A stretch of 64,000 bases of DNA from positions 19,272 to 83,271 of the forward strand of contig JASGHK010000008.1 of NCBI GenBank assembly GCA_049841135.1, in the 5' to 3' direction. A program made the position numbers and the translations under genes. The stretch's first letter is position 1; every line of letters begins with the position of its first letter. This document shows positions 28,742 to 62,531 of this stretch, piece after piece. This DNA is from Myxococcales bacterium (GTDB taxonomy: Bacteria; Myxococcota; Myxococcia; Myxococcales; UBA5297). The notes beneath the pieces are model-generated. The model was not told the DNA's origin, did not search any database, and saw nothing but the letters and a program-made list of their open reading frames with translations.

Positions 28742-30427
28742 GTGGCTCCCATCACCGAACACGCCGCGGCGCACGCAGCGCCCCCGGCTGCCGACCTCGC
28801 CCAGGTAACCCACCGCCCGGGCGGCAGCACCGTCCGCCTCCCGCCCGAGTTCTCCCGAGCGACGGTGGTCGGATACTTCGAGCGGATGGGCATCCCCGGT
28901 CGCGTCGTCATGGGGCCCGCGGACATCGACGGGGTGGGCAGCATCGGCCCCGAGCAGTGGGCAGTCATTGCCGATGGCCGGTCCCCGCGCTTCCTCTCCG
29001 ACCGCGCGCCCGTCACCTTCCCCAGCGACCCGAGGCTCCGGGTCTTCGTCTTCCCCAAACACACCGTGGTGGTGCCAGCCGGGCAGGTCTGGTGGCTGCA
29101 GGTGGCCCTGGAGCGCGTCAAGCCCGAGCGGTTCGAAGCCGACGGGCGGCCCGCTTCCTGGGTGCCACCGGTCCCCCGGTCTGCCGCGCCGGCCCTGGAC
29201 CCGAATCGGGACGGCGACGCGACCATCGGCGAGGCCGGCTCGCTCCCGGAGGCCGAGCCGCTCGAGGCCGAGGCGCCGGGCACGCCCGTCCCCTCGTCCG
29301 CCATCCGGGACTGGTTCGCTGCGCTGTGCGCGAGCCTCGGCCTTCCGGAGATACCGCTGGTGGTCCGGCGTGGGCAGGAAGACGCGCGCGGCCAGGTCCG
29401 CGGGAGCGTGGTGATGACGGCGGACTTCGCGCCCCTGCGCGTCTGCGTCACCACCTGCCCCAACTCCGACCAGGCGGAGGTCCTGGCGACCCTGGTCCAC
29501 GAGCTCGCCCACCCGCTCTCCCGCTCCACCGACCACGGCTCTGCGTTCCGCAGCACGCTGGTGGATCTCGCGGCCCGCCTCTGGGGCGAGCCGCACCTCG
29601 CCGGCGCCCGGGCCCACGTCGACGGCGCCTACCCGCTGCTGGACCGCTGGGTCACCTGCGGCATCCGGGCGGCGTTGGCCGGCCGCGAGCCACCTGCCTC
29701 CAAGGTCTGCGACGACGGCCACGCCGCGAGGGTCGTCGGCAAGGTGGCCAAGCTCTGGGCGCTGGCCGCGGACCAGCTCGGAAAGCCCGAAGGCGTCGGC
29801 GCCGCGGCCATGGCCAACGACCTCGTCACCGTCTACGGCCTCGACCAGTCCCAGGTCTTCACCACCCCGAGCTTCGACGACGGGCTCGTGGACCGCTATG
29901 TCCTGCTCCAGCCGCGCAAGCCCTGGCAGCGCACGCTCGCGCACGAGGTGGCCTACTTCAGCAACGTGTACTCGCTCTCCATGGACAGCGAGGCGCGGAT
30001 GCACTTCTTCGGGCGCTACTCGGACGTCGTCGCCGCCGAGTACCTGTGTGGCGTCAGCATCGGGCGGATCGAGCGCGAGTGCGCGGCCTACCTCGAGCGA
30101 TGCCGCGCGAGCCTGGCCAAGGGCGAGCTGCGCCGGGCCGGCCTGGCCTTCTGCGAGTCGGCGGCGCACGAGTTCGGGCGCAAGCTCCACCGGATCCTGG
30201 AGGAGGAGGCGCGCGCTGCCGGCCGCGCCGTCCAGAGCGCGGCGCTGAACGAGGCCACGGACTTCGCGGAGCACCAGCTCGAGCTGCGCGGCTTCAGGGT
30301 GGGCAAGGCTCGCGCGCGCGAGGTCCGGTACAGCGCCGTCGGCGCCGAGCTGGGCAAGCGGATGGAGGTCGTGCGCGGGCTCGACTCGCAGGGCGCCGCA
30401 CCTCGCTCGCTGCCCGGGCGCAAGTAG
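28742..30427 (+). CDS. hypothetical protein with SprT-like HEXXH motif (VHELAHP) and DUF2786-like helical C-terminal region
   Basis: HELAH zinc-binding motif. VVGKVAKLWALAADQLGKPEGVGAAAMANDLVTVYGLD resembles DUF2786. Confidence 0.45.
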   Translation: MAPITEHAAAHAAPPAADLAQVTHRPGGSTVRLPPEFSRATVVGYFERMGIPGRVVMGPADIDGVGSIGPEQWAVIADGRSPRFLSDRAPVTFPSDPRLRVFVFPKHTVVVPAGQVWWLQVALERVKPERFEADGRPASWVPPVPRSAAPALDPNRDGDATIGEAGSLPEAEPLEAEAPGTPVPSSAIRDWFAALCASLGLPEIPLVVRRGQEDARGQVRGSVVMTADFAPLRVCVTTCPNSDQAEVLATLVHELAHPLSRSTDHGSAFRSTLVDLAARLWGEPHLAGARAHVDGAYPLLDRWVTCGIRAALAGREPPASKVCDDGHAARVVGKVAKLWALAADQLGKPEGVGAAAMANDLVTVYGLDQSQVFTTPSFDDGLVDRYVLLQPRKPWQRTLAHEVAYFSNVYSLSMDSEARMHFFGRYSDVVAAEYLCGVSIGRIERECAAYLERCRASLAKGELRRAGLAFCESAAHEFGRKLHRILEEEARAAGRAVQSAALNEATDFAEHQLELRGFRVGKARAREVRYSAVGAELGKRMEVVRGLDSQGAAPRSLPGRK

Positions 30428-30536
30428 GCAGCAGGCAGCAAGGCCGGCCCCTGGTCTTCGCCCTGACCACAGCGGTGAACACGGCGCTTGCCGCCCGATC
30501 CGCACGAACCTTATCCTCCGCGCCCGCCAGGAGGAC

Positions 30537-32129
30537 TTGCCCATGACCTCGTCGAACCTCGCCGCCAACGTCCCCGCCGTCGACCCCGTCACCGGCCGCT
30601 CGCCGCGCGTCTGCCCGCTCGATCTGCGACCGCTGGAGGAGGTCCCCGACGCCAAGCCGGAGGACGTCCGCCGCGCCGTCGAGCTCGCCCGCCGCGCCGC
30701 CGAGGGCTGGGCCGGCCGCTCGATCGCCGACCGTGCCGCCGCGCTGCGCAAGGCCGCCAAGGCCATGCTCGCCCGCACCGACGAGGTGCTGGCGCTGGTC
30801 AAGGACGAGATGGGCAAGCTGGAGTGCGAGGGCCTGTTCAACGAGGCCCTCGGCCACCTGGACATGCTCGAGGCCTGGGTGGGCGTCGTGGAGAAGGGCG
30901 CCGGCCGCGAGAAGATCCGGATGAACCCGCTCAAGTTCCTGGGCAAGAGCGCGCACATCGACCTCGTGCCCCGCGGCGTCATCGGAATCATCGCGCCCTG
31001 GAACTTCCCCATCGCCGGACTCTACCGCTCCATCTACCCCGCCCTGCTCACCGGCAACGGCGTCGTCCTCAAGCCCAGCGAGCACACGCCGCGCTCCTCC
31101 CAGTGGTTCGCCGACGCGCTCGCCCAGGAGCTGCCCGACGGGCTGATCTCGGTCGTCCACGGTGCCGGCGGCGTGGGCCAGGCGCTCATCGAGGCCGGCA
31201 TCGACGCCTGCGTCTTCACGGGCTCGACGACCGCCGGCAAGCTCGTGCAGGTGCGCTGCGCCGAGCGCGGCATCCCGTGCAGCGTGGAGATGGGCGGCAA
31301 GGACATGGCCATCGTCCTGGCCGACTGCGACTTGGACCGCACCTGCGCCGGCCTGACGCACTGGGCGCTGGCGAACGTCGGGCAGTCGTGTGGCGCGCTC
31401 GAGGTGGCGCTGGTCGAGGAGACCATCGCCGACGAGCTGGTCAGCCGGCTCCAGCGCGCGTGGGAGCACCTCAAGATCGGGCCCGCGGAGCACGCGGATT
31501 TGTCGCCGCTCGCCAACCGCAAGCAGTTCGAGGTGGTGGTCGCGCAGGTCGAGGACGCCCGGCAGAAGGGCGCGCGCATCCTGTGTGGCGGCAAGCCCAC
31601 CGGCGTCGGCTTCTTCTATCCAGCCACTCTCATCGACCGCTGCACCGAGGAAATGGCGGTGGTGAAGGACGAGACCTTCGGGCCGGTGCTGGCCATCGTG
31701 CGCGTCGCGTCGGCGGCGGAGGCGGTGCGGGTCATCAAGCGCTGCCGGTACGGGCTGGGCGCCTCCATCTGGACGAAGGATGTGGAGCGCGCGGCGAAGC
31801 TGGCGGAGCAGGTCGATGCGGGCGTGGTGGTGGTCAACAACCACTCGTTCACCGGAGCCGTGCCGGAGCTGCCGTGGAGCGGCACCAAGGACACGGGCTT
31901 CGGCATCGCCAACAGCCACCACGCGCTGCTGACCTTCTGCCGCCCACGCGCGGTGGTCGTCGACAAGTCCAGTGGGCCCGAGCCGTTCTGGATGCCGTTC
32001 GATCGCGACCTGGCGGAGATGGGGCGACTGCTGATTGACGCCCAGCTCTTCAAGGTCGAGCGGGCGTGGAAGCTGCCGCTGCTCATGCGGCGCCGGGCGA
32101 AGACGATCAAGGAGTTCTTCCGGCGGTAG
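30537..32129 (+). CDS. aldehyde dehydrogenase family protein
   Basis: ALDH core motifs FTGSTTAGKLV and the catalytic Cys context GQSCGALE, plus ELGGK-like MGGKD. About 60 aa C-terminal extension. Confidence 0.85.
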   Translation: MPMTSSNLAANVPAVDPVTGRSPRVCPLDLRPLEEVPDAKPEDVRRAVELARRAAEGWAGRSIADRAAALRKAAKAMLARTDEVLALVKDEMGKLECEGLFNEALGHLDMLEAWVGVVEKGAGREKIRMNPLKFLGKSAHIDLVPRGVIGIIAPWNFPIAGLYRSIYPALLTGNGVVLKPSEHTPRSSQWFADALAQELPDGLISVVHGAGGVGQALIEAGIDACVFTGSTTAGKLVQVRCAERGIPCSVEMGGKDMAIVLADCDLDRTCAGLTHWALANVGQSCGALEVALVEETIADELVSRLQRAWEHLKIGPAEHADLSPLANRKQFEVVVAQVEDARQKGARILCGGKPTGVGFFYPATLIDRCTEEMAVVKDETFGPVLAIVRVASAAEAVRVIKRCRYGLGASIWTKDVERAAKLAEQVDAGVVVVNNHSFTGAVPELPWSGTKDTGFGIANSHHALLTFCRPRAVVVDKSSGPEPFWMPFDRDLAEMGRLLIDAQLFKVERAWKLPLLMRRRAKTIKEFFRR

Positions 32130-34115: not shown

Positions 34116-34187
34116 CCCGCATCCGTCGAGGAGCCCCACCGAGAACTGAAGTGCCGCCCGGGGCGCGCTGCTCTACAGTGCGCAGCC

Positions 34188-37233: not shown

Positions 37234-37476
37234 GGGAGGGCTCAGGCTTTCTGCCATGCCTTCGGCGGCAGCAACCGTTTCCGTTGTGGAAACCGTTGCT
37301 GCGGCGCCCGGGGAGACGGTCGAGACCGCGCCGGTCGAGGCGCGGTCGAAGAAGGCCGCGGAGCGCGGTCCGAGAAGCTGGTCTCGATGCGGCGCGAGCG
37401 CGGGTTCCAGCAGGTCTGAAGATGGGAATCCAGGCCGCGCCCGCGTTACCCTTCCGCCACTTCACAAGGGGGCACC

Positions 37477-38214: not shown

Positions 38215-38289
38215 CGCCCGGCGCGGGCGTCGCGCCCGCGACCCGCCCTTGCCCCTCGCTTGGCACCCTCGGCGCTCCAGCAGCGATGG

Positions 38290-38355
38290 TGGCGGCCGAA
38301 GAGCTTCGCCCAGGGTGGCCGAAGCCGACGAACGAACCCCCTCGGGGAGGGCCCG
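38290..38355. repeat. dispersed intergenic repeat copy (ggcggccgaagagcttcgcccagggtggccgaag...accccctc)
   Basis: About 80% identical to 58025-58095. Partial match to 19141-19228. Confidence 0.6.
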
Positions 38356-38472
38356 CCGCCGCTTGCCCTGCCCTTTCGATCTTCGCTGCCCATGACGAAG
38401 CGGCCCCCCGCTCCACGGAGGGAGCGGGGGGCCGCGAAGGTCAGGCGGGCCTCGGTGGACCCGCGAGCGGGC

Positions 38473-45436: not shown

Positions 45437-45960
45437 TCGTCCCCTCCAGAGGGAGACAGGTTTTAGGTTCGCGCCAGCATACGGCACTGTCGTTCCAGCA
45501 CAAACCCCAGCCGCGAACATCGGCCTGCGAGACCGGATCGGCGGCGTGGACGGGCGCCCCGAGTGGATCCCCGGCGAAGGGCTGGAAGTGGAGCTCACCT
45601 ATACGGTGACGGTCCGCCCGCGACCGCCATCACGACCCGAATGGGGAAGCAGAACGGGCGTTGCGCCCGCGAGCCGGTGGTGGTCTCACCGGCCGCCGGT
45701 ACCGCTCGCGCAACGCGGCGAAGCCGGCCCCTACGGATGAGCGTGGATGCGTTCAGCCGCACGGTTGGCCGTCGCCGCGATGGGCAGCAGCGGGTTGACG
45801 CTGTGCTGCCGTCGACGATGACTAGCCAGCCAAAGCGCCACCGACGGCATGGCGCCCATGGCCTACGGCAAACCGTCCGCCTGGGCGACCACGACGTGAA
45901 CCTCACCGCGCTCGTCCTTAAGAGCCGCTCGAAGCCGAAGCTCGCGGGCGTGGCATCGGC

Positions 45961-46300
45961 ACCCCGTCCACCATGTCCACTCCGTCCACCCGGTCCACTC
46001 CGTCCGCCCACGTGCTCTTACTCGGCCCCATTCGTGGCGTGCGTGGCGTGCGTGGCGTGCGTGGCGTGCGTGGCGGTGCGTGGCGGTGCGTGGCGTGCGT
46101 GGCGTGCGTGGCGTTGCGGTGCGGGCGGTGCGCGCGCGCGCGCGGGCGCGCGGCAGTCGCGGCAGTCGCGGCAGTCGCGAAAGGAATGTCGGCCCCAGAC
46201 GCTAGAGTGCCCGACAGTGGTGGACGGTGTGGACGGTGTGGACGGTGTGGACGGTGTCGACGGTGTGGACCTTTGACGGGGTCCCCGAGGGGATCCCACG
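45961..46300. repeat. cluster of 9-bp-period microsatellites: (tccac[tc]c[cg]g)x4, (gtggcgtgc)x9, (gc)n, (gcggcagtc)x3, (gtggacggt)x6
   Basis: Direct reading of 45971-46010, 46034-46115, 46126-46150, 46151-46178 and 46217-46270. The first and last blocks are roughly inverted relative to each other. Confidence 0.75.
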
Positions 46301-46309
46301 GGAGGGGAC

Positions 46310-46921
46310 ATGGACGAGCTGATTCAGAAGAGTGGTGGTTTCCGCAAGTTGGTAAGTTTTCGGGTGGCGGTGCTGACGTACGACGTGACGCTTCGCTTCT
46401 GCGACCAGTTCATTCGCAGGGGCAGCCGCACCCACGACCAGATGGTCCAAGCGGCACGCAGCGGCGCACAGAACATCGCCGAGGGCAGCCTGGCCTCGGC
46501 CACCTCCAAGAAGACCGAGCTCAAGCTCACCGGCGTCGCACGCGCGAGCCTGGGCGAGCTCATCCGCGACTACGAAGACTTCCTGCGGCAGAACCGCCTC
46601 TCGCTCTGGGTCGGCGAGGACGGCAGACGCCAAGGACTCCTCGACCGGCGCTTCAAGACCGTCGACCAGGTCGAGCGCTGGGCGACCGAGTTCGCCGCCA
46701 TCTCCACGCCGTCCACCCAGTCCACTCCGTCGACTCCGTCCAGCCAACCGAGCTCACTCCCCGAATGCTGGGCGAATGCAGGCCACGCGCTCTCCTGCGT
46801 CGCCTTCGGCCTACTGAGCCGCCAGCTCAAGTCGCTGGCCAGGGCCTTCCAGGAGAACGGCGGTTTCACCGAGCGCCTCTACCGCACGCGCAAGCAACAG
46901 CAACAGTCCTGGCGCAGCTGA
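46310..46921 (+). CDS. four-helix-bundle protein (TIGR02436 family) with internal STPSTQSTPSTPSS repeat
   Basis: FRKLVSFRVAVLTYDVTLRF...AQNIAEGSLASATSKKTELKLTGVARASLGEL pattern. The gene is about 55-60% GC, lower than its flanks. It contains tccacgccgtccacccagtccactccgtcgactccgtcc at about 46700-46745, related to the upstream satellite. Confidence 0.6.
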   Translation: MDELIQKSGGFRKLVSFRVAVLTYDVTLRFCDQFIRRGSRTHDQMVQAARSGAQNIAEGSLASATSKKTELKLTGVARASLGELIRDYEDFLRQNRLSLWVGEDGRRQGLLDRRFKTVDQVERWATEFAAISTPSTQSTPSTPSSQPSSLPECWANAGHALSCVAFGLLSRQLKSLARAFQENGGFTERLYRTRKQQQQSWRS

Positions 46922-46992
46922 AGCGCAGGGCGCAAGGAGGGTGGCCAGGCCCGCGACGCAGGCGAGCCTGGCAGCGCTCGGGCGCGGCACGC

Positions 46993-48882
46993 CTACAGGT
47001 GGTCGTGAATCCGCTCCGCCGCGCGGTTGGCCATCGCCATGATGGTCAGCTGCGGGTTGACGCCCAACGCGCTCGGCACGGTGCTGCCGTCGACGATGAA
47101 CAGCCTCCGGACGTCGTGCGCCTGGTGGTCCAGTCCGACCACGCTCTTCTTCGGGTCGCGGCCCATCTTGCAGGTGCCCAGCGGGTGGTAGCTGACGAGC
47201 GAGAGGTCCGCCGCGGCCGGGACGTTCTTGCGGTACTGGTCCAGGTCGGCGAGCTCGACCACCGGCGTGGAGTTGCGCGTGGGGAAGAAGCGGCGGGCGC
47301 CGGCGGCGCGCAGCATCTCCATGCAGCGCAGCATGCCGGTGTGGAGCTGCTCGCAGTCCTTGCGGGTGAACCAGTAGGTGATGACCGGCTTGCCGCCGAC
47401 CTCGCGCCACACCCGCCCGTTGGCGGTGGCGTCGTGCTCGAGCACCGCCACCGAGGCGATCTTCGGCAAGAGCTCCAGGGTCTGCATCAGGCTGCGCCCG
47501 GCCACCGGGAACAGCTCGGCGGCCACGTTCACGTCCGGCTGCGAGGCGACGATCATGATGCCGTCGCGCTGGAACTGGTCGCAGGCGTAGCCCTGCGGGA
47601 TGTAGTGGAAGCCCTTGATCTCCTCGTCGAAGAGCCCGGAGACGCCGGTCGACGGGTGCAGGGTGAGGTTCCTGCCCACCTGGCCGCTGCGGTTGCACAG
47701 GTCCTGCTGCAGCAGGAGCAGCGGGGTCGGCACCGCGCCGCCGGCGAGCACCACCACCCGCGCGCGCACCTTGAGCCGCACGCCGCCCGCCGTCGCCGCC
47801 TCCACCCCCACCGCCCGGCCGTTCTCCACGAGCACCTTGTCGACGCTCGCCCCGGTGAAGAGCTGCGCGCCCGAGTTGAGCGCCGCGGGGATGTAGCTGA
47901 GGTTCATGCTGCGCCGCGCGTCGGAGGGGCAGCCGAAGTCGCAGAAGCTCGACCCGGTGCACCCCTCGACGTTGCGGCGGATGGCGAAGTGGTGCCAGCC
48001 CAGGGCGTCGCAGCCGCGGGCCATCACGTTGCGGATGGGCCCCACCTCGGGCTGGTCCGCCGGCGCCACGCCGATGTTCCCCTCCACCTTCTGGAAGTGG
48101 GGCTCCATCGCCAGCTCGCTGAACTCGTCGGTGCCCAGGCTCTCGCACCAGCGGTCGAGGATCCACGACGGGGTGCGGAAGCAGGTGGCGCCGTTGACCG
48201 CGGTCGAGCCGCCCACCAGCTGGCCGATGTAGATGGGCATCACCGCGTTCCCGACGGACGCGGCGCCCCGGTAGAAGTTCTGGTGGGCGTGGATGGCGCT
48301 GCCGGTGAACGAGTCGCGCCGGTAGTGCTCGCCCTTCTCCAGGAAGACCACCGCGTGCCCGCGCTCCGCCAGCTCGCGGCCGACGATCGCTCCGCCGGCG
48401 CCGGTGCCCACCACCACCACGTCGCACTCGACCTCGCCCTCGGTCCACTCCGCCGCCTTGTGGATCTGCTCGAGCCAGCGGGGCTGCTCCAGCGCCTTGG
48501 GCGTCTCGCGCACCCGGGCGCCCATGCAGCGCTGCACCTCCGGGTCGTCGAAGTGCACCAGCTTGTAGACGACGGAGGGCAGGGTCAGCGGCAGGCGCAT
48601 CGCGCCCGACAGCCAGGAGCGCACGAGGTTCTCGCGCTCGAGGTCGGAGAGGTCCTGGAGCCGCTTGCCGGTGCGCGGCAGCGCCGCCAGGTCCAGCACA
48701 CGCTGCAGCAGGCCCCAGGGCTTGACCAGCAGCGGCGAGAACTCGGCCACCACCTCTTCGGCGCGCGTGACGTCGGCGGGCCCGGCGGCGGGGATGCGCG
48801 CCGTACCGGGGATGAGGGCCTGCGCCAGGGCGGCGGCGGCCTTGCGTTCGGAGGCAGTCAGGGAGGGCTGGGATGACTTCAT
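46993..48882 (-). CDS. GMC-family FAD oxidoreductase
   Basis: VVVVGTGAGGAIVGRELAERG FAD fold. GMC C-terminal motifs including HPLGTCKMG. The start is 48882 (MKSS...) or 48954. Confidence 0.8.
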   Translation of the reverse strand: MKSSQPSLTASERKAAAALAQALIPGTARIPAAGPADVTRAEEVVAEFSPLLVKPWGLLQRVLDLAALPRTGKRLQDLSDLERENLVRSWLSGAMRLPLTLPSVVYKLVHFDDPEVQRCMGARVRETPKALEQPRWLEQIHKAAEWTEGEVECDVVVVGTGAGGAIVGRELAERGHAVVFLEKGEHYRRDSFTGSAIHAHQNFYRGAASVGNAVMPIYIGQLVGGSTAVNGATCFRTPSWILDRWCESLGTDEFSELAMEPHFQKVEGNIGVAPADQPEVGPIRNVMARGCDALGWHHFAIRRNVEGCTGSSFCDFGCPSDARRSMNLSYIPAALNSGAQLFTGASVDKVLVENGRAVGVEAATAGGVRLKVRARVVVLAGGAVPTPLLLLQQDLCNRSGQVGRNLTLHPSTGVSGLFDEEIKGFHYIPQGYACDQFQRDGIMIVASQPDVNVAAELFPVAGRSLMQTLELLPKIASVAVLEHDATANGRVWREVGGKPVITYWFTRKDCEQLHTGMLRCMEMLRAAGARRFFPTRNSTPVVELADLDQYRKNVPAAADLSLVSYHPLGTCKMGRDPKKSVVGLDHQAHDVRRLFIVDGSTVPSALGVNPQLTIMAMANRAAERIHDHL

Positions 48883-49078
48883 TTGGGGGGTGCTCACTCT
48901 CGAACAATCCAGGCTGCGCGGCACCATAAGAGAGGGCCTTGGGGAATTCAACAAAGTGCTTCCGTCCCGCCCCGGGCGCGACTATCGTTCGCCCCTTCGT
49001 TTTGCCGGCCTCGTGCCGGCCTTGGATCGCCGGCCGCGTGCCGGCAGCGCTGCTCCCAGCACCGACGAGGTCGTTCGC

Positions 49079-50635
49079 GTGAAGTCCATCCCCGGTTCCA
49101 GCATCACCGGCCGCGCCCTGTGGGCCGCGGCGCAGCTTCGCGTCGCCATGTGGGACCGCCTGGCGGCCTCGCCGGACGCGGTCGAACGCGTCCAGCGCCA
49201 GACGCTGCTCGACTACTGCAACAAGGCCAAGGACACCGAGTTCGGCCGGGCCAACGGCCTGGGCGAGGTCCGCACCCCCGAGGACTTCCGCCGCAAGGTG
49301 CCGGTGCGCAACTACGGCGACTTCGAGCCCTACCTCGTCCGCATGCGCCAGGGCGAGCACAGCGTGCTCTGGCCGGGCCTCATCCCCTTCTACGGCTGCT
49401 CGTCGGGCACCTCGCACACCGCGTCGCTCAACAAGTACCTGCCCATCAGCCGCGAGCAGATCGGCTGGCAGCAGAAGGCCGGCGCCGACGTCGTCTTCCG
49501 CTACCTGTCGCTCACCGGCGACAGCAAGCTGACCGGCGGCTACCTGCTGGGCCTGTTCCCGCCCGGCACCGTCAAGCGCGAGGGCCCGGTCGGCGTGGCC
49601 AGCAACCCGGGCATCATGCAGCTGTTCCTGCCGTCGTTCTCCAAGCTGATGACGCTGCCCAAGCCGGCGGTGCGCGACATCGAGAACTACTCGCAGAAGC
49701 TGGACGCCATCGCCAGCGCCTACCTCGACTACGACGTGCGCGGCATCAGCGGCACCACCTGCTGGTTCCCCATCTTCTTCGAGCGGCTCATCAAGGCCGC
49801 CCGCGCGCGCGGCCGCGACGTCTCCACCGTCAACCAGATCTGGCCGAACCTGCACGCGCTCTTCGGCGGCGGGGTCACCGCCGAGCCGTACCGCCCGGTC
49901 ATCACCGAGCGCCTGGGCCACCCGGGCGTGGTGATGGACAACTACAACGCCACCGAGGGCGGCATCTTCGCGGCCACCTGGAGCCTCAACGACGACTCGC
50001 TGCTGATGATCCCCGACCGCGGCGTCTACTTCGAGTTCGTGCGCCGCGACCGCCCCGAGGCGGGCCGCGTGGGCCTGTGCGAGGTCGAGCGCGACGTCGA
50101 CTACTCGGTGGTCCTCACCACCTCCAGCGGCCTCTTCGCCTACGAGATCGGCGACTACATCCGCTTCACCTCGCTCTTCCCGCACCGGATGCGGTTCTCC
50201 GGGCGCAAGAGCGGCGTGCTCTCGCTGACGCAGGAGCTGATGACCCAGGGCGAGATCGAGCGGGCCGTCGGCGCCGCCGCCGCCGGGGCCCACGTGCCCA
50301 TCGTCGAGTTCGCCGCCGGCCCGGACGTGGGCGTGGGCGGGACGGCCAAGGGCCGCTACACCCTCTTCGTCGAGTTCGAGCGCTCCCCCGCCGACCTCGC
50401 CGCGTTCGCGCTCTCCTTCGACCAGAGCCTGCGCGAGCAGAACCGTGTCTACCGCGAGCATCGCGCCAACGACGTGGCGATCCTCGCCCCCGAGGTCGTC
50501 CCGCTCCCGAGGGGCGCGACCCGGCGCTTCATGGAGGAGTTGGGCCAGCACAGCGTGCAGCAGAAGTTCCCCCGCATCATCGATACGTCCCGGAGCAAGC
50601 TGCTGCGGTCCCTGGCAGCGACTTCGGACAAGTGA
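49079..50635 (+). CDS. GH3-family acyl-acid amido synthetase-like adenylating enzyme
   Basis: GH3 motifs YGCSSGTSHTAS and YNATEGG. The GTG start at 49079 with a GAGG RBS is chosen. An upstream in-frame start cannot be excluded. Confidence 0.7.
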   Translation: MKSIPGSSITGRALWAAAQLRVAMWDRLAASPDAVERVQRQTLLDYCNKAKDTEFGRANGLGEVRTPEDFRRKVPVRNYGDFEPYLVRMRQGEHSVLWPGLIPFYGCSSGTSHTASLNKYLPISREQIGWQQKAGADVVFRYLSLTGDSKLTGGYLLGLFPPGTVKREGPVGVASNPGIMQLFLPSFSKLMTLPKPAVRDIENYSQKLDAIASAYLDYDVRGISGTTCWFPIFFERLIKAARARGRDVSTVNQIWPNLHALFGGGVTAEPYRPVITERLGHPGVVMDNYNATEGGIFAATWSLNDDSLLMIPDRGVYFEFVRRDRPEAGRVGLCEVERDVDYSVVLTTSSGLFAYEIGDYIRFTSLFPHRMRFSGRKSGVLSLTQELMTQGEIERAVGAAAAGAHVPIVEFAAGPDVGVGGTAKGRYTLFVEFERSPADLAAFALSFDQSLREQNRVYREHRANDVAILAPEVVPLPRGATRRFMEELGQHSVQQKFPRIIDTSRSKLLRSLAATSDK

Positions 50636-50643
50636 GAGATACC

Positions 50644-51840
50644 GTGAGCAATCGTCTGGGCATCTGCATTGTCGGTCTGAATGGCGCCGTGGCCACCACG
50701 GTCGTTGCCGGCCAGCTTCTGATGAAGAAGAAGCTCACCGAGCGCAACGGCATGATCACCGAGACCAAGGACTTCGAGAAGCTGGGCCTGGCCCCGGTCG
50801 ACGACATCGTCTTCGGCGGCTGGGACCTGCTCCCCGGCTCCACCTACGAGTGGGCGCAGCACCACCACGTGCTCAAGCCCCACGTCGTGGACCAGGTCAA
50901 GGCCGAGCTCCAGGAGGTCAAGGCCTGGCCGGGCGTCGTGTCCGAGAAGTTCATGAACGCGATGGCCAAGGACAAGATCAAGAACGTGGTCAGCGCGCCC
51001 ACGTTCCGCAAGGAGCTGGAGATCCTCCAGGGCCACATCGAGGGCTTCAAGAAGCAGCACCAGCTCGACAACGTGGTCATCGTCAACCTGACCTCCACCG
51101 AGAAGTACACCGAGGTCAGCGACGTCCACCGCACCATCGAGGCCTTCGAGAAGGGCCTGGACGCCAACGACGAGCGGATCAGCCCGGCGATGAAGTTCCT
51201 CTACCTGGCCTGCAAGATGGGCATCCCGCACGCCAACTTCACGCCCAGCCTCTCCAAGATCCCCGCGCTCGAGAAGCTGTCCGACCAGACCATCCCCATC
51301 TGCGGCGAGGACGGCAAGACCGGCCAGACGCTGCTCAAGACCGTGCTCGCGCCGATGTTCGTCGTCCGCCAGCTCAAGGTGCGCGGCTGGTTCTCGACCA
51401 ACATCCTGGGCAACAACGACGGCCTGGTCCTCAACGACCCCGCCGCCAACAAGACCAAGGTCACCAGCAAGATGAGCGTGCTCGACAGCGTGCTCGGCTA
51501 CAAGGTGCCCTTCCACCAGGTGCACATCCACTACTACGAGCCCCGCGGCGACGACAAGGAAGCCTGGGACAACATCGACATCGAGGGCTGGGCCGGCGAG
51601 AACATGCAGCTGAAGATGAACTTCCTCTGCAAGGACTCCATCCTGGCCGCGCCGCTGGTCATCGACATGGCCCGCATCCTCGCCTTCGCCAAGGCCAAGG
51701 GCGAGAAGGGCATCCAGCGCCAGATGTCCGTCTTCTTCAAGTCGCCCTACCACACCGAGGGCGAGACCCCGGTCCACGACCTGTTCCGCCAGTACACGCT
51801 GCTCGAGAACTGGTCGGCCAAGCACGGCGGCAAGGCGTAG
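50644..51840 (+). CDS. ino1: myo-inositol-1-phosphate synthase (inositol-3-phosphate synthase)
   Basis: LGICIVGLNGAVATTVVAG NAD fold. HANFTPSLSKIPALEKL...GEDGKTGQTLLKTVLAPMF...GWFSTNILGNNDG...KSP closely parallels archaeal and bacterial MIPS. Confidence 0.85.
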   Translation: MSNRLGICIVGLNGAVATTVVAGQLLMKKKLTERNGMITETKDFEKLGLAPVDDIVFGGWDLLPGSTYEWAQHHHVLKPHVVDQVKAELQEVKAWPGVVSEKFMNAMAKDKIKNVVSAPTFRKELEILQGHIEGFKKQHQLDNVVIVNLTSTEKYTEVSDVHRTIEAFEKGLDANDERISPAMKFLYLACKMGIPHANFTPSLSKIPALEKLSDQTIPICGEDGKTGQTLLKTVLAPMFVVRQLKVRGWFSTNILGNNDGLVLNDPAANKTKVTSKMSVLDSVLGYKVPFHQVHIHYYEPRGDDKEAWDNIDIEGWAGENMQLKMNFLCKDSILAAPLVIDMARILAFAKAKGEKGIQRQMSVFFKSPYHTEGETPVHDLFRQYTLLENWSAKHGGKA

Positions 51841-52009
51841 CCGGGCTTCGGGCTTCGGGCCTCGGGCTTCGGACTATTCCTTCCCGCCTGAGGCCCCCAG
51901 CCTAGACACGCGGGATCGGCAAGGCCCGCAACAGCAACCAACACGCACCTGAGAGAGCGCGGTCCACATAGGGACCGCGCTCTTTCCCTTCACACCAGGA
52001 GAGTCGGTC

Positions 52010-53323
52010 ATGACGGAGCTCGCGATCTTTGGGGGCAAGCCTGCAGTGCGCGCAGAGGACCACGTGCGCTGGCCGGTCCTCGGTCAGGAGGATCGCGAGG
52101 CGGTCCTGCGCGTCCTCGACCGCGGCGTGCTCTCCGGCCCGTTCGCACCCGAGGTCCGCGCGCTCGAGTCCGAGTGGGCCAAGTACCTGGGCAGCAAGTG
52201 GTGCCTGGCCACCAACAGCGGCACCGCCGCCATCCACATGGCCATGGCCGCCGCCGGCATCGGCCCGGGCGACGAGGTGATCGTCCCGGCGTTCACCTTC
52301 GTGGCCACCGCCCTCGCCGTGCTCCACCAGGGCGCGGTGCCGGTCTTCGTCGACGTCGAAGAGAAGACCTTCGGCATGGACCCCGCGCAGGTCGAGAAGG
52401 CCATCACCCGGAGGACCAAGGCGGTGATGCCGGTGCACCTGCACGGCACGCCCTGCGACATCGACGCCATCGCCGCGCTCTGCAAGAAGCACAACCTGCT
52501 GCTCATCGAGGACGCGGCGCAGGCGCACGGCAGCACGCACGCCGGCAAGAAGGTGGGCACCATCGGCGCCATCGGCTGCTTCAGCGTGCAGTCGTCCAAG
52601 AGCCTCGCCGCGGGCGAAGGCGGCCTGTTGGTCACCGACAGCGAGGCTCTGTGGGAGCAGGCCAACCGCACCCGCATGTTCGGCGAGAACGTGAAGGCGG
52701 GCGACGAGTCCGGCTACAACCTCCAGCGCGCCCTCGACGGCAACCGCGCCTACGACTCGCTGGGCATGGGCTGGATGTACCGGACCACCGAGCTGTCCGC
52801 CGCCGTCTGCCGCGCGCAGCTCGGCAAGCTCGACAAGTTCAACGCCCAGGCGCAGGCCAACGCCGCGCTCCTGAACAAGCACCTGAAGGAGCTGCCCGGC
52901 GTCACCCCGCCCGAGCCGCGAGCCGGCGACACCAGCTGCTACCACAAGTACCGCGTGGTCCTGGACCCGAAGAAGGCGGGCGTCGACGCGCCGCCCAAGA
53001 AGGTCCGCGACGCGCTCAAGGCGGCGCTCGTCGCCGAGGGCTTGGAGGCGGTGCTCTGGCAGACCCAGCCCGTGCCGGGCCAGGGCCTGTTCAAGAACAA
53101 GGCGGGCTTCGGTGGCCGGGCGTTCCCGTTCGACCAGTCGCCGCAGGTCAACTACGACCTGGGCCAGTTCCCGACGACCACGCGGCTGCTCGACTCGTCG
53201 ATCGTGCTCTTCTCGCACACCTGCCCCATCGCGCCGCAGCCGACGAAGCTGGTCGAGGCCTACGCCGAGACCTTCACCCGCGTCTGGAAGCGCCTGGGCG
53301 ACGTGGTGGCCAAGGCGAAGTAG
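52010..53323 (+). CDS. DegT/DnrJ/EryC1/StrS-family PLP-dependent aminotransferase
   Basis: GPFAPEVRALESEWAKYLGSKWCLATNSGTAAIHMA...FSVQSSKSLAAGEGG with the family PLP-Lys context. Confidence 0.85.
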   Translation: MTELAIFGGKPAVRAEDHVRWPVLGQEDREAVLRVLDRGVLSGPFAPEVRALESEWAKYLGSKWCLATNSGTAAIHMAMAAAGIGPGDEVIVPAFTFVATALAVLHQGAVPVFVDVEEKTFGMDPAQVEKAITRRTKAVMPVHLHGTPCDIDAIAALCKKHNLLLIEDAAQAHGSTHAGKKVGTIGAIGCFSVQSSKSLAAGEGGLLVTDSEALWEQANRTRMFGENVKAGDESGYNLQRALDGNRAYDSLGMGWMYRTTELSAAVCRAQLGKLDKFNAQAQANAALLNKHLKELPGVTPPEPRAGDTSCYHKYRVVLDPKKAGVDAPPKKVRDALKAALVAEGLEAVLWQTQPVPGQGLFKNKAGFGGRAFPFDQSPQVNYDLGQFPTTTRLLDSSIVLFSHTCPIAPQPTKLVEAYAETFTRVWKRLGDVVAKAK

Positions 53324-53339
53324 CGGCCCTCCCCCTACT

Positions 53340-53460
53340 CCTCCCCCCTCCCCGACCTTCAACCTGCGGGAGGGGCGTTCGTCCCGCGGCTTCGGCTGTC
53401 TTGGTCGGAGCTGCTCGGACTCCTCGGATCGCCGGCCTTGTGCCGGAAAGCACTCTGAGC
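53340..53460. repeat. dispersed intergenic repeat copy (caacctgcgggaggggcgttcgtcccgcggcttcggc...ggtcggagctgctc)
   Basis: About 85% identical over about 75 bp to 57765-57840. Confidence 0.65.
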
Positions 53461-53589
53461 GACCACCGACGGGCTGTCTGTCCTGCCCTATCCAGTGGAT
53501 GGAGGAGGACCCTGTGGTTGCGGGCGTCCCGCCCGCGCGCCCGCGCACGGGGCCGCCTCGGCTCTCGCAACGCCTCGGGAGATGCACTC

Positions 53590-54385
53590 ATGACCCCCCG
53601 TCCCGCCAACTTGCTCGACAGCGCCATCGCCGCTGCCCGCGCTGCCGGCGCCATCCAGCTCGAGCGCCGCAAGGCCGGCTTCAAGGTCGAGGACAAGGGC
53701 GCGGCGGACATCGTCACCGAGGTCGATGGCGAGTGCGAGCGGGCCATCACCGAGCTCGTCGCCGCACGCCTTCCCGGGCACGCGGTGCTGGGCGAAGAAG
53801 GAACCGGAGAGGTCGACACTCAGGCCGAGTTCCTGTGGATCGTCGAATCCGCTCGACGGGACCAAGAACTACGCCCACGGGTACGCGCGCTCGGCCGTGT
53901 CCATCGCGGTCGCTCACCACGGCAAGGTCGTGGTCGGCGTCATCCTCAACCCGGCGACCGACGAGCTCTTCGCCGCCGAAGAGGGCAAGGGCGCGACGCT
54001 CAACGGCCAGGCCATCCACGTCTCGGCGACCGAGCGCATCTCGCGGGCCATGGTCGCCAGCGCGCTCGCCTACGACCCAACCCCCGGCGTGCGCCGCGCC
54101 GACCGCGCCCAGCTCGAGCGCTTGGCGCGAGTGCTCGCCGCCGCCGAGGCCGTCCGCTCCGACGGCTGCTGCGCCCTCGACCTGTGCGACGTGGCCCGCG
54201 GCCGTTTCGACGCGTACTTCGAGCACGGCCTGAAGAGCTGGGACACCGCCGCGGGCACGCTGATCGTCCGCGAAGCGGGAGGCACCGTCACCACCTATGC
54301 CGGCGGCCCGCACGATCCGAACTCGCCCGACATGGTGGCGTCCAACGGGCGCTTCCACGCGGAGCTGGTCAAGCTGATGGAGTGA
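53590..54385 (+). CDS. inositol monophosphatase family protein; apparent +1 frameshift near 53846
   Basis: EEG...EFLWIV then a shift to DPLDGTKNYAHG (the IMPase DPIDGT motif) and WDTAAG later. Removing one A in gaa restores the frame. Confidence 0.8.
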
Positions 54386-54480
54386 GGCCCGCTGGGGAGG
54401 GCCCGGGATGGCTGTCTCCGCGGCCGGTGTTGGAGCCGTGACGCGGGAGGCGGGCTGAGACCGCCTTCCTCGGCTCTCTC

Positions 54481-57027
54481 ATGACCTTGCCCCCTGGCTC
54501 CCCCTCGGCGAAGCACAGACTCTTGCGCGTCCCCGGCAGCCTCTACCGCCGCTATGTGGCCGCCGTCTGCCGCAAGCCCCGGCTCGCCGCCCTGCTGCTC
54601 GCGCTCTTCAGCCTGCCCGCCCTGGCGCTGACCGCCGCCTACTTCGCCGACGTCCGCGCCGGGCTCCAGGAGCTGCTGCCCTCCTCCGCCCCCAGCGTGA
54701 CGGCCCTGAAGGAGCTGCACGCTCGCCTGGGCGGGCAAGCGCACCTGAACGTGCTCGTGCAGTCGGACGACCCGGCGGCCAATCGACGCTTCGTCGACGA
54801 GCTCGCCGGCCGGCTGCGCGAGCGCAATCTCCCCGAAGCCAGGTCCATCCAGTCCACGGTGATGCCCGAGCGGCTCTGGGCCGAGAAGCGTGCCCCGCTC
54901 CTCTTGCCGCGCGCCGAGTTCGACCGGGCGATGGACGAGGTCGACCGGGCCATCGAAGAAGCCACCGTCCAGGCGAGCCCGTTCGCGCTGGGCCTCGAGG
55001 ACGAAGCGCCGTCGGAACAGGCCGGCTCGCAGCTCCAGGAGCGGCTCCAGGCGCGCATCGCCGAGCAGGACCGGTTCCCCACCGGCACCCTGCAGACCCG
55101 CGACGGCAAGACCGCGGTCGTCGTCATCAAGCTTCAAGGCTCGGAGGTGGACATCGAGCCCTCTTCGCGGCTGCTCGCCTCGGTGCAGCGCGAGGTCGAC
55201 GCGCTGCGGCCCGGCTTCCCGCCGGAGCTGACCGTCGCCTACAACGGCGAGGTCGCCAACCTGGTCGAGGAGCACTCCGCGATCCTCTCGGACATGTCGC
55301 TGTCGACCTTGCTCGTCTTCGCGCTGGTCACCGCGCTCATCGCCGCCTACTTCCGGTCCTGGCGCGCGATCCTCGCGGTGGGCATCGGCTTGCTGCCGGG
55401 CCTGTTCGCGACCTTCGCACTGGGCCGTCTGCTCGCCGGCAGCCTCAACTCCAACACCGCCTTCCTGGGCTCGATCATCGCGGGCAACGGCATCAACTAC
55501 CCGCTCATCCTGCTCGCCTACTTCCGGGCCACCGAGTCGCACCTGCCCCTGCCCGAGGCCATCGTCCGCGCCGCGCGCCGCGCGCTGCCGGGGACCCTGG
55601 GCGCGGCCGCCACCGCTTCGGCCGCCTATGCCGGCCTCGCCTCCTCCTCGTTCAAGGGCTTCTCGCAGTTCGGCTGGCTCGGTGGCGCCGGGATGATCTG
55701 CACCTGGGCCGTCACCTTCCTGGCCATGCCCGTGGCCATCGCGCTGCTCGATCCGCCTCGCCAGGTCGAGAGGATCACCCGCCCCCAGCGGTGGCTCGAG
55801 CGCTACTTCTCCCATCCCCGAACCCCTCGCCTCGTAGCGGCCGCGGCGCTCGTCCTGGTCCTCGGCGGATTGCTCTTCGGAGTCGTGCGCGCGGCGCGGA
55901 CGGGCCTCTACGAGTGGGACCTGCGCCACCTGCGCAACTCGGACTCGCTCGAGTCCGGCAGCGCCTCGTGGGACCCGAAGATGAACGAGATCTTCGGCGT
56001 CTGGCTCAACCCCATCGTGGCGATGGCGCCCACGGCCGACGCACGCGAAGAGGTCGCGGAGGGTCTGCGACGCGCGCTCGTGACCGGTGCCGAGCCACTG
56101 GCGGAGCGGGTTCAGACCATCCAGGACTTCGTGCCCCCGCTCGCCGACCAGCAGCAGCGCCTGCAGCGCATCGCCCGGCTGGGCGCACAGGCCCAGAAGC
56201 TGCGCGAGGTCGCGCCCGAGAAGCTCTCGGCCGACGCCTGGCGCCGGCTCGACCTGTGGACGGCCCCTGCGCAGCTCGCGCCCATCACCGTCTCCGAGGT
56301 CCCGAGCACGCTCCTCAACGGCCTCGCGGAGGTCTCCGGCCGTACCGACGCCGCGGTGCTGCTCTTCCCGTCGCTCAAGGTGGACTTCGACGACGGACGC
56401 AACGTCCTGCGGTTCGCCGATCAGCTGGCGACGGCGAAGCTCCCGCCGGGCACCGTGGTGGGCGGCGGCTTCCTCTTCATGGCGGAGATCATCCGGCGGG
56501 TGCACGACGAGGCCCCGGTGGTGGTCCTGACCGTGGCGGCGCTGGTGGCGCTGCTGCTCGTGCCGCTCTTCGGGCGCAAGCCGTCGCGCGTGCTGGTGAC
56601 GGTGGTGACGGTGGGCGCCGTGGCGCTCGCCTCGCAAGCGCTGATGGTGGCCCTGGGCGTGCGGGTGAACATGCTAAACTTCGCCGCGGTGCCCATCACC
56701 ATCGGCGTCGGCGCGGACTATGTGGTGAACCTGTTCGGCGCCATGGACGCGCTCGGCTCCGACGCGCGCCGGGCGTGCTCCCGCATGGGCGGCGCCATCC
56801 TGCTCTGCTCGCTGACCACCATCGTCGGCTACCTCTCTCTGGTGATGGCGCAGTCCGGCGCGCTGCGAAGCTTCGGCTGGGCCGCCGTGGTCGGAGAGGT
56901 CCTGGCGGTGGGCACGGTCCTGGGCGTCTTGCCGGTCGTGCTCCCACGCCGGAAGACGGCTGCGGCTCCCGAGACCCTCGCAGCACCGCCGCCGCCCACC
57001 GAGGCCGCTGAGGAGGCTGCAGCCTAA
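54481..57027 (+). CDS. MMPL/RND-superfamily exporter (HpnN-like lipid transporter)
   Basis: 848 aa. Two hydrophobic 6-TM bundles, each after a large soluble loop. Typical RND/MMPL topology. Confidence 0.75.
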   Translation: MTLPPGSPSAKHRLLRVPGSLYRRYVAAVCRKPRLAALLLALFSLPALALTAAYFADVRAGLQELLPSSAPSVTALKELHARLGGQAHLNVLVQSDDPAANRRFVDELAGRLRERNLPEARSIQSTVMPERLWAEKRAPLLLPRAEFDRAMDEVDRAIEEATVQASPFALGLEDEAPSEQAGSQLQERLQARIAEQDRFPTGTLQTRDGKTAVVVIKLQGSEVDIEPSSRLLASVQREVDALRPGFPPELTVAYNGEVANLVEEHSAILSDMSLSTLLVFALVTALIAAYFRSWRAILAVGIGLLPGLFATFALGRLLAGSLNSNTAFLGSIIAGNGINYPLILLAYFRATESHLPLPEAIVRAARRALPGTLGAAATASAAYAGLASSSFKGFSQFGWLGGAGMICTWAVTFLAMPVAIALLDPPRQVERITRPQRWLERYFSHPRTPRLVAAAALVLVLGGLLFGVVRAARTGLYEWDLRHLRNSDSLESGSASWDPKMNEIFGVWLNPIVAMAPTADAREEVAEGLRRALVTGAEPLAERVQTIQDFVPPLADQQQRLQRIARLGAQAQKLREVAPEKLSADAWRRLDLWTAPAQLAPITVSEVPSTLLNGLAEVSGRTDAAVLLFPSLKVDFDDGRNVLRFADQLATAKLPPGTVVGGGFLFMAEIIRRVHDEAPVVVLTVAALVALLLVPLFGRKPSRVLVTVVTVGAVALASQALMVALGVRVNMLNFAAVPITIGVGADYVVNLFGAMDALGSDARRACSRMGGAILLCSLTTIVGYLSLVMAQSGALRSFGWAAVVGEVLAVGTVLGVLPVVLPRRKTAAAPETLAAPPPPTEAAEEAAA

Positions 57028-57094: not shown

Positions 57095-57209
57095 AGGCTT
57101 GAGGGCGTCAAAGCGCCAGCTTGATTGCCCTGCGTCACCCGAGCGTGGTAGGTCCGAGCCCGTGAACAAGCTCAGCACCCGAGACGGTCGCTTCGCTGCC
57201 CTGCGTCGG

Positions 57210-57738
57210 ATGGCGCTGGCGGGGATCGCCCTGGTGCTCTGTGGCGCGGAGGCCGCGATGGAGCCGAAGTTCGGCCCGAACGACATCGAGACGCTCTTCT
57301 TCATCAACAAGAGCGACGACAAGAACCGCGTGGACTACGGCCTTCGGCTGGACGCCAACTGCCAGCCGGTGGGCAGCGACCCGGTCTTCCCGTACTGGCG
57401 CGAGTTCGAGAACGCCCCGCCGGTGAAGACGCACACGCTCAAGTTCTTCGAGTACGCGGGCTACGGCGTGGTCGGCGTGAAGGTCACCAAGAACGAAGGC
57501 GGCGCCGACATCTCGCTCAAGCTCAAGCCGCTCTCCCGGGAGCTCGTCATCTCCACCGGCAAGGGCCCGGACGGCAAGTGCATGGCCGTGGTGCGCAGCA
57601 CCATCGCCGACGTGCAGGGGGCCGAGCTCAAGAGCGCGTACATCAAGCTCAAGTACGGCTGGACGGTCGACTACGTCGACGTGTTCGGCAAGCACCCCAT
57701 CACCGGGGCGGAGCTCGACCGAGCGGCTCAAGCAGTAG
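57210..57738 (+). CDS. secreted hypothetical protein; 3' end uncertain
   Basis: Signal peptide MALAGIALVLCGAEA. The in-frame ORF continues to 57932 through a dispersed repeat. A +1 error in gggg at 57706-57709 would end the protein ...HPITGRSSTERLKQ* at TAG 57736-57738. Confidence 0.45.
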
Positions 57739-57744
57739 GCAGCC

Positions 57745-57900
57745 CTGCCCTCGCAGCCCTCCCTCCCAACTGCGGGAGGGGTTCGTCCCGTGGCTTCGGC
57801 GATCCTGGTCGGAGCTGCTCCAACTCCCTTGGCTTCCTGCGACGCACAATTTCGGTGCGAGCAGGAGCGCTAGCGCTCCAAGGCCTCGGCGTCGCATCCC
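57745..57900. repeat. dispersed intergenic repeat copy (tcccaactgcgggaggggttcgtcccgtggcttcggc...)
   Basis: Matches 53340-53460. The core is the reverse complement of ccctcccgcagttggga. Confidence 0.65.
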
Positions 57901-58024
57901 TTCAGACCCGCACCGGTGTCGGCGAACGCTGACATACCTTGCGCGGGGTCATGTCAGCGTACCCATACCGTCTGCCCCGGGACGCCCATGCCGAGACTGG
58001 CTTCATGAGTAGTCGCCGGCCGAT

Positions 58025-59516: not shown

Positions 59517-59675
59517 TGCGTGTTCTCTCCATCCAGGGTTAAGCGAGCCCGGCACCATAGCCGAAAACCAGACGTTCGGCACCTCCCCCGGTGGGCCCCC
59601 AGGTTCAAAGGGCTTCCCCGGGCGCGCGTCAACGGCTAGAAAGTGCCTTTTCGTCCGAGAGTCCGAGAGGTTGCG

Positions 59676-62525: not shown

Positions 62526-62531
62526 CGCTCC

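Follow-up and report, generated by a model that had tools for sequence, protein, structure and literature searches.

Why would an amide-forming ligase be encoded directly beside enzymes of inositol metabolism? This question is raised by a 64,000-nucleotide stretch of DNA from a Myxococcales bacterium (contig JASGHK010000008.1; this whole stretch is called the window below). In it, a GH3-family acyl-acid amido synthetase is followed by a myo-inositol-1-phosphate synthase (hereafter MIPS), a DegT-family aminotransferase, an inositol monophosphatase-family gene (IMPase) and an MMPL-family transporter, while a GMC-family oxidoreductase is divergently transcribed upstream. An earlier reading of the sequence (the original prediction) proposed that the GMC enzyme oxidizes myo-inositol to an inosose, that DegT aminates the inosose, that GH3 acylates the resulting amine and that the conjugate is exported. 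We found that GH3, MIPS and DegT form a conserved unit, which is more than a chance grouping, and that the link between an inositol-derived amine and a GH3 ligase is well supported by comparison of gene neighborhoods. Our preferred reading, to which we assign a probability of roughly 0.45, is that this operon-like cluster would join an inositol-derived amine to a carboxylic acid by an amide bond, yielding a probably amphiphilic product that is transported into the cell envelope or across it.

Since the window has a high GC content (~71%), we used third-position GC (GC3) to choose reading frames and thereby the real genes; GC3 is 0.93-0.99 across all cluster genes. Families were assigned using the curated gathering thresholds of Pfam, subfamilies using the equivalog cutoffs of NCBIfam, and solved relatives were compared by their PDB bit scores. 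All six families named in the original prediction pass their Pfam thresholds by wide margins. A GH3-only search of species-representative genomes yielded 43 related loci, and a contig look-up added one more (loci are numbered with an L). We mapped the proteins of the window onto these loci, and limited the count of the three-gene unit to those 39, of 45 in all, with at least 3 kb of downstream flank.

The physical linkage that the original prediction saw in one locus is conserved and contiguous: in 33 of these 39 loci, GH3 is immediately followed by MIPS, and MIPS by DegT. The six exceptions are four variant loci (L007, L014, L016 and L036) that are discussed below, a locus with a truncated GH3 (L043) and a locus whose DegT matches poorly (L041). 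The gene order is also kept in a 40%-GC metagenome-assembled genome (MAG) labelled as Chlamydiae (L030) and in a MAG labelled as Bdellovibrionota (L039). Two minimal loci, L032 and L035, share little beyond the three genes. In the window, the GTG start codon of MIPS overlaps the stop codon of GH3 as GTGA, so that the two genes would be translated together, which suggests translational coupling. Given the conserved linkage, it is likely that GH3, MIPS and DegT belong to one pathway. Literature searches that combined inosamine with lipid, GH3 or fatty acid, or MIPS with Myxococcus and aminotransferase, returned no description of a pathway with GH3, MIPS and DegT, in line with the original statement that none had been described.

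The GH3 protein matches three Pfam models, GH3 (PF03321, 1.7e-27, 96.9 bits), GH3_M (PF23571, 1.6e-12, 47.8 bits) and GH3_C (PF23572, 1.9e-15, 58.0 bits), each against a cutoff of 23.6. Its ANL-type nucleotide-binding motifs and C-terminal catalytic lysine are intact, and a set of 41 orthologues shows little or no variation in the motifs SSG(T/S)S..K, YNATEGG, Y.IGD and Q.KFPR. It is predicted to perform ATP-dependent amide formation between an acid and an amine. The protein is 100% identical to a 518-amino-acid (aa) protein of a “Myxococcales bacterium” MAG, and hundreds of relatives at ~60% identity occur in Myxococcota MAGs. Its best PDB relative is JAR1, with 77 bits.

The only NCBIfam model matched by GH3 is OlsH_GH3_orni (NF052613), at 253 bits against a cutoff of 620. 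In 2025, OlsH was demonstrated to catalyze the ATP-dependent ligation of a fatty acid to ornithine, the first step toward ornithine lipids (PMC12493201). It is the only characterized bacterial GH3 relative, and its product is an aminolipid; the authors of that work proposed that many other bacterial homologues probably use other amines (PMC12493201). Like the OlsH/OlsI system of Singulisphaera acidiphila, the window has a bacterial GH3 with the same three Pfam domains and adenylation motifs, which would use ATP to form an amide from an acid and an amine; in the case of OlsH, the product is a phosphorus-free aminolipid. However, the window GH3 scores below equivalog level, and its partners are MIPS and an aminotransferase, which point to a cyclitol amine and not to ornithine. 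We scanned the open reading frames (ORFs) around the cluster in the window and in seven other loci for missing enzymes, and an OlsI-type alpha/beta-hydrolase was not found among these neighbors. In view of the low score and the absence of OlsI among the neighbors scanned, we rejected the idea that GH3 is an OlsH orthologue. Myxococcales are absent from the orders listed with OlsH homologues in a 2026 review.

Independent evidence on the amine comes from the four variant loci. They lack the genes for MIPS, for the phosphatase, for GMC and for the aldehyde dehydrogenase (ALDH) that accompanies GMC elsewhere; immediately before GH3, they encode an aminotransferase with a score of 386 bits to 5W70-type L-glutamine:2-deoxy-scyllo-inosose aminotransferases. 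In three of the four (L014, L016 and L036, but not L007), this aminotransferase is in turn preceded by the inositol 2-dehydrogenase IolG, with 430 bits on TIGR04380 (equivalog cutoff 355). Inositol dehydrogenase together with an inosose aminotransferase is the classical route to scyllo-inosamine. The GH3 proteins of the variant loci are 57-61% identical to that of the window, and form one clade nested inside the MIPS-linked GH3 proteins. The occurrence of IolG and an inosose aminotransferase beside an orthologous GH3 suggests that this GH3 clade takes an inosamine-type amine, and argues that the supply of the amine is the only difference between the two types of cluster. The part of the original prediction in which GH3 acts on an inositol-derived amine is thereby strengthened; the conjugate that it would form is a predicted product.

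Table 1. Features of the cluster and its surroundings in the window
Feature	Position	Strand	Comments
Aldehyde dehydrogenase (ALDH), displaced partner of GMC	30249..32129	+	Longest ORF; real start further downstream; Aldedh domain at aa 118-569
GMC FAD oxidoreductase	46993..48882	-	Extra N-terminal region of ~150 aa; longest ORF extends to 48954; likely ATG at 48882
Divergent GMC-GH3 intergenic region	48883..49078	.	196 bp; promoters presumed here
GH3 ATP-dependent acyl-acid amido synthetase	49079..50635	+	Pfam GH3, GH3_M and GH3_C; OlsH relative, not equivalog
MIPS (myo-inositol-1-phosphate synthase)	50632..51840	+	NAD_binding_5 and Inos-1-P_synth; LGNNDG motif in translation
DegT/DnrJ/EryC1/StrS PLP aminotransferase	52010..53323	+	PF01041, 8.6e-96 (322 bits)
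Inositol monophosphatase-family gene (IMPase)	53590..54385	+	Split by a 1-nt insertion at 53848
MMPL/RND (HAE3-type) inner-membrane transporter	54481..57027	+	PF03176, 2.3e-19; most similar to HpnN
DUF4833 protein, possible accessory	57099..57932	+	Probably secreted (hydrophobic N-terminal stretch, by eye); domain at ~57255-57710

The DegT protein of the window belongs to a different clade from the aminotransferases of the variant loci. Its best PDB match, over the full length, is 8GYH (325 bits), as compared with 190-196 bits for the inosose and 2-deoxy-inosose aminotransferases (7B0D, 5W71 and 2C7T) and 186 bits for perosamine synthases. The inosose aminotransferases, to whose family the original prediction pointed, are thus not its closest relatives. 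The lysine in its SSKS motif aligns with the lysine in the ATKN motif of 8GYH, and, based on knowledge of the DegT family, we take it to be the lysine that binds pyridoxal phosphate (PLP). A literature search on 8GYH returned no paper, and we took the role of this family from the genomic context of homologues that are 80-90% identical in actinomycetes, e.g., in Catenulispora acidiphila (L045) and Streptomyces roseoviridis (L046). Neighboring genes there encode LysW, a LysX-type ATP-grasp protein, an amino-acid kinase, a transketolase in split form, a BtrH_N protein, a nonribosomal peptide synthetase and a sulfotransferase. From this context, we infer that the 8GYH family acts in a carrier-protein-mediated amino acid pathway. 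Given that 8GYH is the closest relative and that the window DegT is ~30% identical to the variant-locus aminotransferase, homology alone does not settle the substrate of DegT.

We compared the cluster with systems that make scyllo-inosamine, for which we take StsC (streptomycin), BtrS (butirosin) and rhizopine biosynthesis as comparators (PDB 7B0D, 2C7T and 5W70/5W71). In common with these, a DegT-family PLP enzyme occurs beside inositol-supplying genes, and the variant loci have the pair of dehydrogenase and aminotransferase. By contrast, the 64-kb window has no IolG homologue, its DegT falls in the 8GYH clade, and the next step would be performed by a GH3 ligase instead of being a glycosylation, guanidination or methylation. 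A bolder and speculative extension would have enzymes of this DegT clade transfer the amino group to a phosphorylated inosose that comes straight from MIPS, with the phosphatase acting afterwards. We know of no precedent for DegT action on a phosphorylated inosose. Such a reaction would explain why an inositol dehydrogenase is unlinked, why a phosphatase is linked and why the aminotransferase linked to IolG is not orthologous.

MIPS matches NAD_binding_5 (1.1e-64, 219 bits) and Inos-1-P_synth (1.7e-34, 119 bits). We suspected a horizontal origin of this gene from its low GC content (0.635), and rejected it because its GC3 of 0.98 is like that of the neighboring genes. The best solved relative is 7NWR (BT_1526 of Bacteroides, 304 bits), and the MIPS of A. 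fulgidus scores 223 bits. BT_1526 is a biochemically verified MIPS, and is part of the inositol-lipid cluster BT_1522-BT_1526 (PMC9246714). Both there and here, MIPS lies within a lipid-biosynthesis cluster (a candidate one in our case). Moreover, a gene similar to lysyl-phosphatidylglycerol synthase also flanks the Bacteroides clusters (PMC9246714), although the corresponding membrane protein is found here in the orthologous loci and not in the window. Unlike the Bacteroides cluster, the cluster in the window lacks a CDP-alcohol phosphatidyltransferase, a PIP phosphatase and an IPC synthase, and its aminotransferase and adenylating ligase point to an amide rather than a phosphodiester linkage. 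The ORFs scanned around the cluster and in the related loci included neither a CDP-alcohol phosphatidyltransferase (PIP synthase) nor a PIP phosphatase, and the absence of the former led us to reject inositol phospholipid or sphingolipid synthesis of the Bacteroides type.

It might be supposed that GH3 makes an N-acyl amino acid lipid like that of OlsH, while MIPS, IMPase and DegT constitute a separate envelope pathway, e.g., for an inositol lipid or an amino-sugar modification, with which it merely shares regulation. Characterized GH3 enzymes all take amino acids as their amine partner (PMC12493201), and Myxococcus is reported, in work cited in PMC9246714, to make ceramide phosphoinositol. 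The scores of DegT against ArnB and perosamine synthases nearly equal those against the inosose enzymes, and one subclade of loci has an ArnT-like PMT_2 glycosyltransferase. However, a separate pathway does not fit the translational coupling of GH3 and MIPS, the joint occurrence of the three genes across phyla, or the minimal loci, in which GH3, MIPS and DegT stand alone. It also does not fit the variant loci, where MIPS is lost and its replacement by IolG and an inosose aminotransferase again abuts GH3. As with the phosphatidyltransferase, the scan of neighboring ORFs in the window and the seven other loci turned up no nucleotidyl-sugar gene. We consider two separate pathways to be quite unlikely.

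The phosphatase gene is frameshifted as sequenced. An extra base at 53848 (GTCGAATCC in the window, as compared with GTCGAC/T-CC in four intact orthologues) lies inside the catalytic motif WIVDPLDGT (DPxDGT), and the motifs DPxDGT and WDxAAG share one frame only once this base is removed. After its removal, the protein scores 7e-71 (239 bits) on PF00459, and 169 bits on the inositol-1-monophosphatase model PRK10757 (cutoff 332). Compared with locus L001, which is 91% identical, the window has two further isolated insertions of 1 nt, at 57713 (in the C-terminus of the DUF4833 protein) and at 60112 (in an ABC ATPase). Given that three such isolated insertions occur relative to L001, those at 53848, 57713 and 60112 are probably indels of a long-read assembly, on a MAG contig of 1.65 Mb, and not signs of gene decay, i.e., the genes are probably not pseudogenes. 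The C-terminal tail of the DUF4833 protein is then probably an artefact of the second insertion. The original prediction had the right family for the phosphatase.

The GMC protein has both expected domains (GMC_oxred_N, 2.5e-47, 162 bits; GMC_oxred_C, 1.1e-21, 78 bits) and a visible motif for flavin adenine dinucleotide (FAD), VVVGTGAGG. It matches no NCBIfam equivalog, the best model being choline dehydrogenase (89 bits, cutoff 605), and its matches in the PDB, chloramphenicol oxidase (65 bits) and FAD-glucose dehydrogenase (62 bits), are likewise weak. In related clusters, GMC is usually adjacent to the ALDH gene; often both point in the same direction, ~12 bp apart (L030). In the window, a 14.9-kb insertion (32130-46990) that is absent from L001 separates them. 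The displaced gene, which the original prediction overlooked, is 87% identical in nucleotides to the ALDH that abuts GMC in L001 (L001 positions 6263-7906 correspond to window positions 30484-32129). It matches the Pfam model Aldedh at 2.2e-116. Its subfamily scores are below equivalog level (succinic semialdehyde dehydrogenase, 332 bits, cutoff 521), and its closest structures, GapN-like 3PRL (218 bits) and AldA (all at ~210-218 bits), do not identify its substrate.

GMC and ALDH occur together in 32 loci, and 12 loci have neither. The sole locus with GMC only, L034, has no upstream flank; ALDH thus accompanies GMC in 32 of the 33 GMC-bearing loci. Because GMC is inseparable from ALDH, the two look like a pair that converts an alcohol via an aldehyde to an acid, and they may supply the acid for GH3 rather than the inosose. 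Such a succession from alcohol to acyl-adenylate is known from the alk system (AlkJ/AlkH/AlkK), and BetA/BetB also combine a GMC alcohol dehydrogenase with an aldehyde dehydrogenase. The cluster shares with these the GMC flavoprotein alcohol dehydrogenase and the aldehyde dehydrogenase, upstream of an adenylate-forming enzyme in the presumed order of reactions. It differs in that the similarity to AlkJ or BetA is weak (the 89 bits versus 605 above), and in that the acceptor would be an amine and not CoA. The four variant loci have an FAD enzyme of the CrtI/phytoene-desaturase family directly after GH3 (L014 11549-13288; also L007, L016 and L036), which may fill the oxidative role of GMC and ALDH there.

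The competing view is the exact route of the original prediction, in which GMC oxidizes free myo-inositol to scyllo-inosose for DegT and ALDH has no role in the pathway. This route would account for the fact that GMC is missing exactly where IolG appears. It also agrees with the N-terminus of the GMC orthologue in L018, which resembles Gluconate_2-dh3 (PF13618, 23.8 bits, cutoff 23.4; the window copy has no such match), and with the PDB relatives of GMC, which include sugar dehydrogenases and 6'''-hydroxyparomomycin oxidase. The latter feeds an aminotransferase in aminoglycoside biosynthesis. On the other hand, GMC never occurs without ALDH where flank exists, the variant loci have lost both ALDH and GMC, and loci with the three core genes and no nearby oxidoreductase exist (L032, L035 and L044). 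The similarity of GMC to characterized enzymes is also weak throughout. GMC as the supplier of inosose is hence one of two readings of this enzyme, and the route as originally drawn appears fairly unlikely to us.

The transporter is a generic member of the MMPL/HAE3 type. Its best NCBIfam matches are all far below, or below, their cutoffs: HpnN (TIGR03480) with 127 bits versus 752, HAE3 (TIGR00921) with 123 bits, the HpnN-type model NF052374 with 97 bits versus 1100 and BstA with 66 bits versus 1400. It shares the MMPL/HAE3-type RND architecture with the hopanoid transporter HpnN and the sterol transporter BstA, but no hopanoid or sterol genes are present in the window. An orthologue with at least 49% identity occurs beside the cluster in 17 other loci.

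Other genes recur around the cluster. The HpnN-like MMPL gene is found in 18 loci including the window, the phosphatase in 15, DUF4833 in 8 and a flippase-like membrane protein of the LPG_synthase_TM family in 32; MlaC and an OEP-family protein occur in two (L044 and L006). The LPG_synthase_TM gene lies between DegT and the phosphatase in most related clusters. It is missing from the window, and could not have been seen by the original prediction. LPG_synthase_TM, MlaC and OEP are lipid-trafficking or outer-membrane families. These lipid-handling genes, together with the precedent of the OlsH aminolipid, suggest that the product is probably amphiphilic.

A soluble product would require the same chemistry. 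GH3 might produce a signal similar to rhizopines, an osmolyte, a cofactor akin to mycothiol or a siderophore-type conjugate that is exported via the RND and OEP proteins. MMPL proteins also export siderophores, and plant GH3 enzymes use small acids. In addition, ALDH is similar to GapN-like 3PRL, AldA and succinic semialdehyde dehydrogenase, whose substrates are small polar aldehydes, the N-terminus of the GMC orthologue is like the small subunit of flavoprotein dehydrogenases for sugars and polyols, and the cluster has no acyltransferase or fatty-acid gene. Yet LPG_synthase_TM, MlaC and the HpnN-like transporter are hard to explain with a soluble product, and the nearest characterized bacterial GH3 takes fatty acids (PMC12493201). 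We therefore view a soluble product as unlikely.

Under the preferred reading, that of an amide-linked and probably amphiphilic conjugate, five steps can be proposed. MIPS, whose family membership is clear, would convert glucose-6-phosphate to inositol-1-phosphate, and the IMPase-type phosphatase would remove the phosphate. A hydroxyl group would then be oxidized to a ketone, by GMC or by an unlinked dehydrogenase, and DegT would transaminate the ketone to an inosamine. Next, GH3 would adenylate a carboxylic acid with ATP and transfer the acyl group to the amine, as judged from the mechanism of its family and its intact nucleotide motifs. The acid could be a fatty acid, as for OlsH, or be made on site from an alcohol by GMC and ALDH. 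Finally, the HpnN-like MMPL protein would move the product out of the inner membrane, and LPG_synthase_TM, MlaC, the OEP outer-membrane protein and DUF4833 may contribute in sister genomes. The simplest product would be an N-acyl inosamine, i.e., a phosphorus-free cyclitol lipid or surfactant. By analogy, this mechanism most resembles aminolipid synthesis of the OlsH type combined with the inosamine-forming steps of aminocyclitol pathways.

Several observations weigh against this reading. To our knowledge, an aminocyclitol acceptor is unprecedented for GH3, as the amino acid partners of the characterized enzymes underline. DegT is closest to a family found in LysW carrier-protein clusters and not to the inosose aminotransferases, and is distant from its counterpart in the variant loci. 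An inositol dehydrogenase was found neither in the window nor next to the three genes in L032, L035 and L044. The phosphatase gene is broken in the sequence as it stands, the transporter falls well short of the HpnN cutoffs, and DUF4833 is only loosely linked to the cluster. With no second, OlsI-type acyltransferase, the product would bear a single acyl chain. All loci derive from MAGs of uncultured organisms.

A narrower version, which we regard as possible but tentative, is that the cluster defines a new class of phosphorus-free N-acyl aminocyclitol envelope lipids or surfactants in uncultured Myxococcota, in which GH3 would attach the acid to an inosamine head group derived from glucose-6-phosphate, with GMC and ALDH supplying the acid from an alcohol. 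As a part of this version and with the same reserve, the three genes would have reached a few lineages outside Myxococcota by gene transfer.

The regulation of the cluster left little trace in its sequence. A regulatory scan of the cluster found no Rfam family and no sigma-70-like promoter, and terminator-like sites occurred only at chance level; the divergent spacer between GMC and GH3 (48883..49078) likewise had no sigma-70-like site and no Rfam match. In L018, a sigma-70 factor of the extracytoplasmic function (ECF) type is encoded immediately upstream of GMC (4971-5486), which hints at envelope-stress regulation.

We now note properties of individual loci and of the DNA that surrounds the cluster. 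In L032 (13781-14410) and L035 (13787-14416), DegT is followed by a kinase-like P-loop protein of the AAA_28 family and by a protein of ~280-300 aa that has no annotation. A subclade of 11 loci (L017, L019, L022, L024, L026-L029, L037, L038 and L042) adds the ArnT-like PMT_2 glycosyltransferase together with a DUF3047 protein. This subclade also has a second, distant MMPL protein (~30% identity) as well as additional GMC paralogues of ~860 aa, one or two per cluster, and is without the phosphatase. A literature search on DUF4833 returned no description of this pathway. Downstream of the DUF4833 gene in the window, a radical SAM protein is encoded on the minus strand (58182-59516); its best NCBIfam match, with only 65 bits (cutoff 450), is the tetraether lipid synthase Tes, and L001 is the one locus in which it is also conserved beside the cluster (90% identity). 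Next to it are genes for an ABC ATPase and two permeases of the FtsX/MacB type (59640-63839).

The genes in the insertion between ALDH and GMC (32130-46990) are unrelated to the cluster. They encode an SNF2/SWIM helicase whose frame is apparently interrupted, with its two parts at 34116-37233, a repeat protein similar to lectins, a giant repeat protein that is rich in cysteine and apparently frameshifted (38473-45598), and a four-helix-bundle protein that has a suffix domain (46310-46921). Several arrays of 9-bp tandem repeats at 45960-46270 and 46703-46742 (e.g., CGTGGCGTG x 8.9 and GTGGACGGT x 5.7) lie upstream of the four-helix-bundle gene and extend into it.

The link between bacterial GH3 enzymes and the synthesis of membrane lipids dates only from 2025 and concerns ornithine alone, with the roles of other homologues left open (PMC12493201). 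The present analysis gives one GH3 clade a concrete and testable assignment with an amine partner that is not an amino acid. If this assignment is true, it would widen the known chemistry of the GH3 family, and aminocyclitols would be a new type of head group for bacterial membrane lipids or biosurfactants. Given that ~40 species-level genomes of uncultured Myxococcota carry the cluster, from varied metagenome projects as judged by their record names, the product could be a lipid that is common in the environment but at present lacks an assignment in lipidomic surveys.

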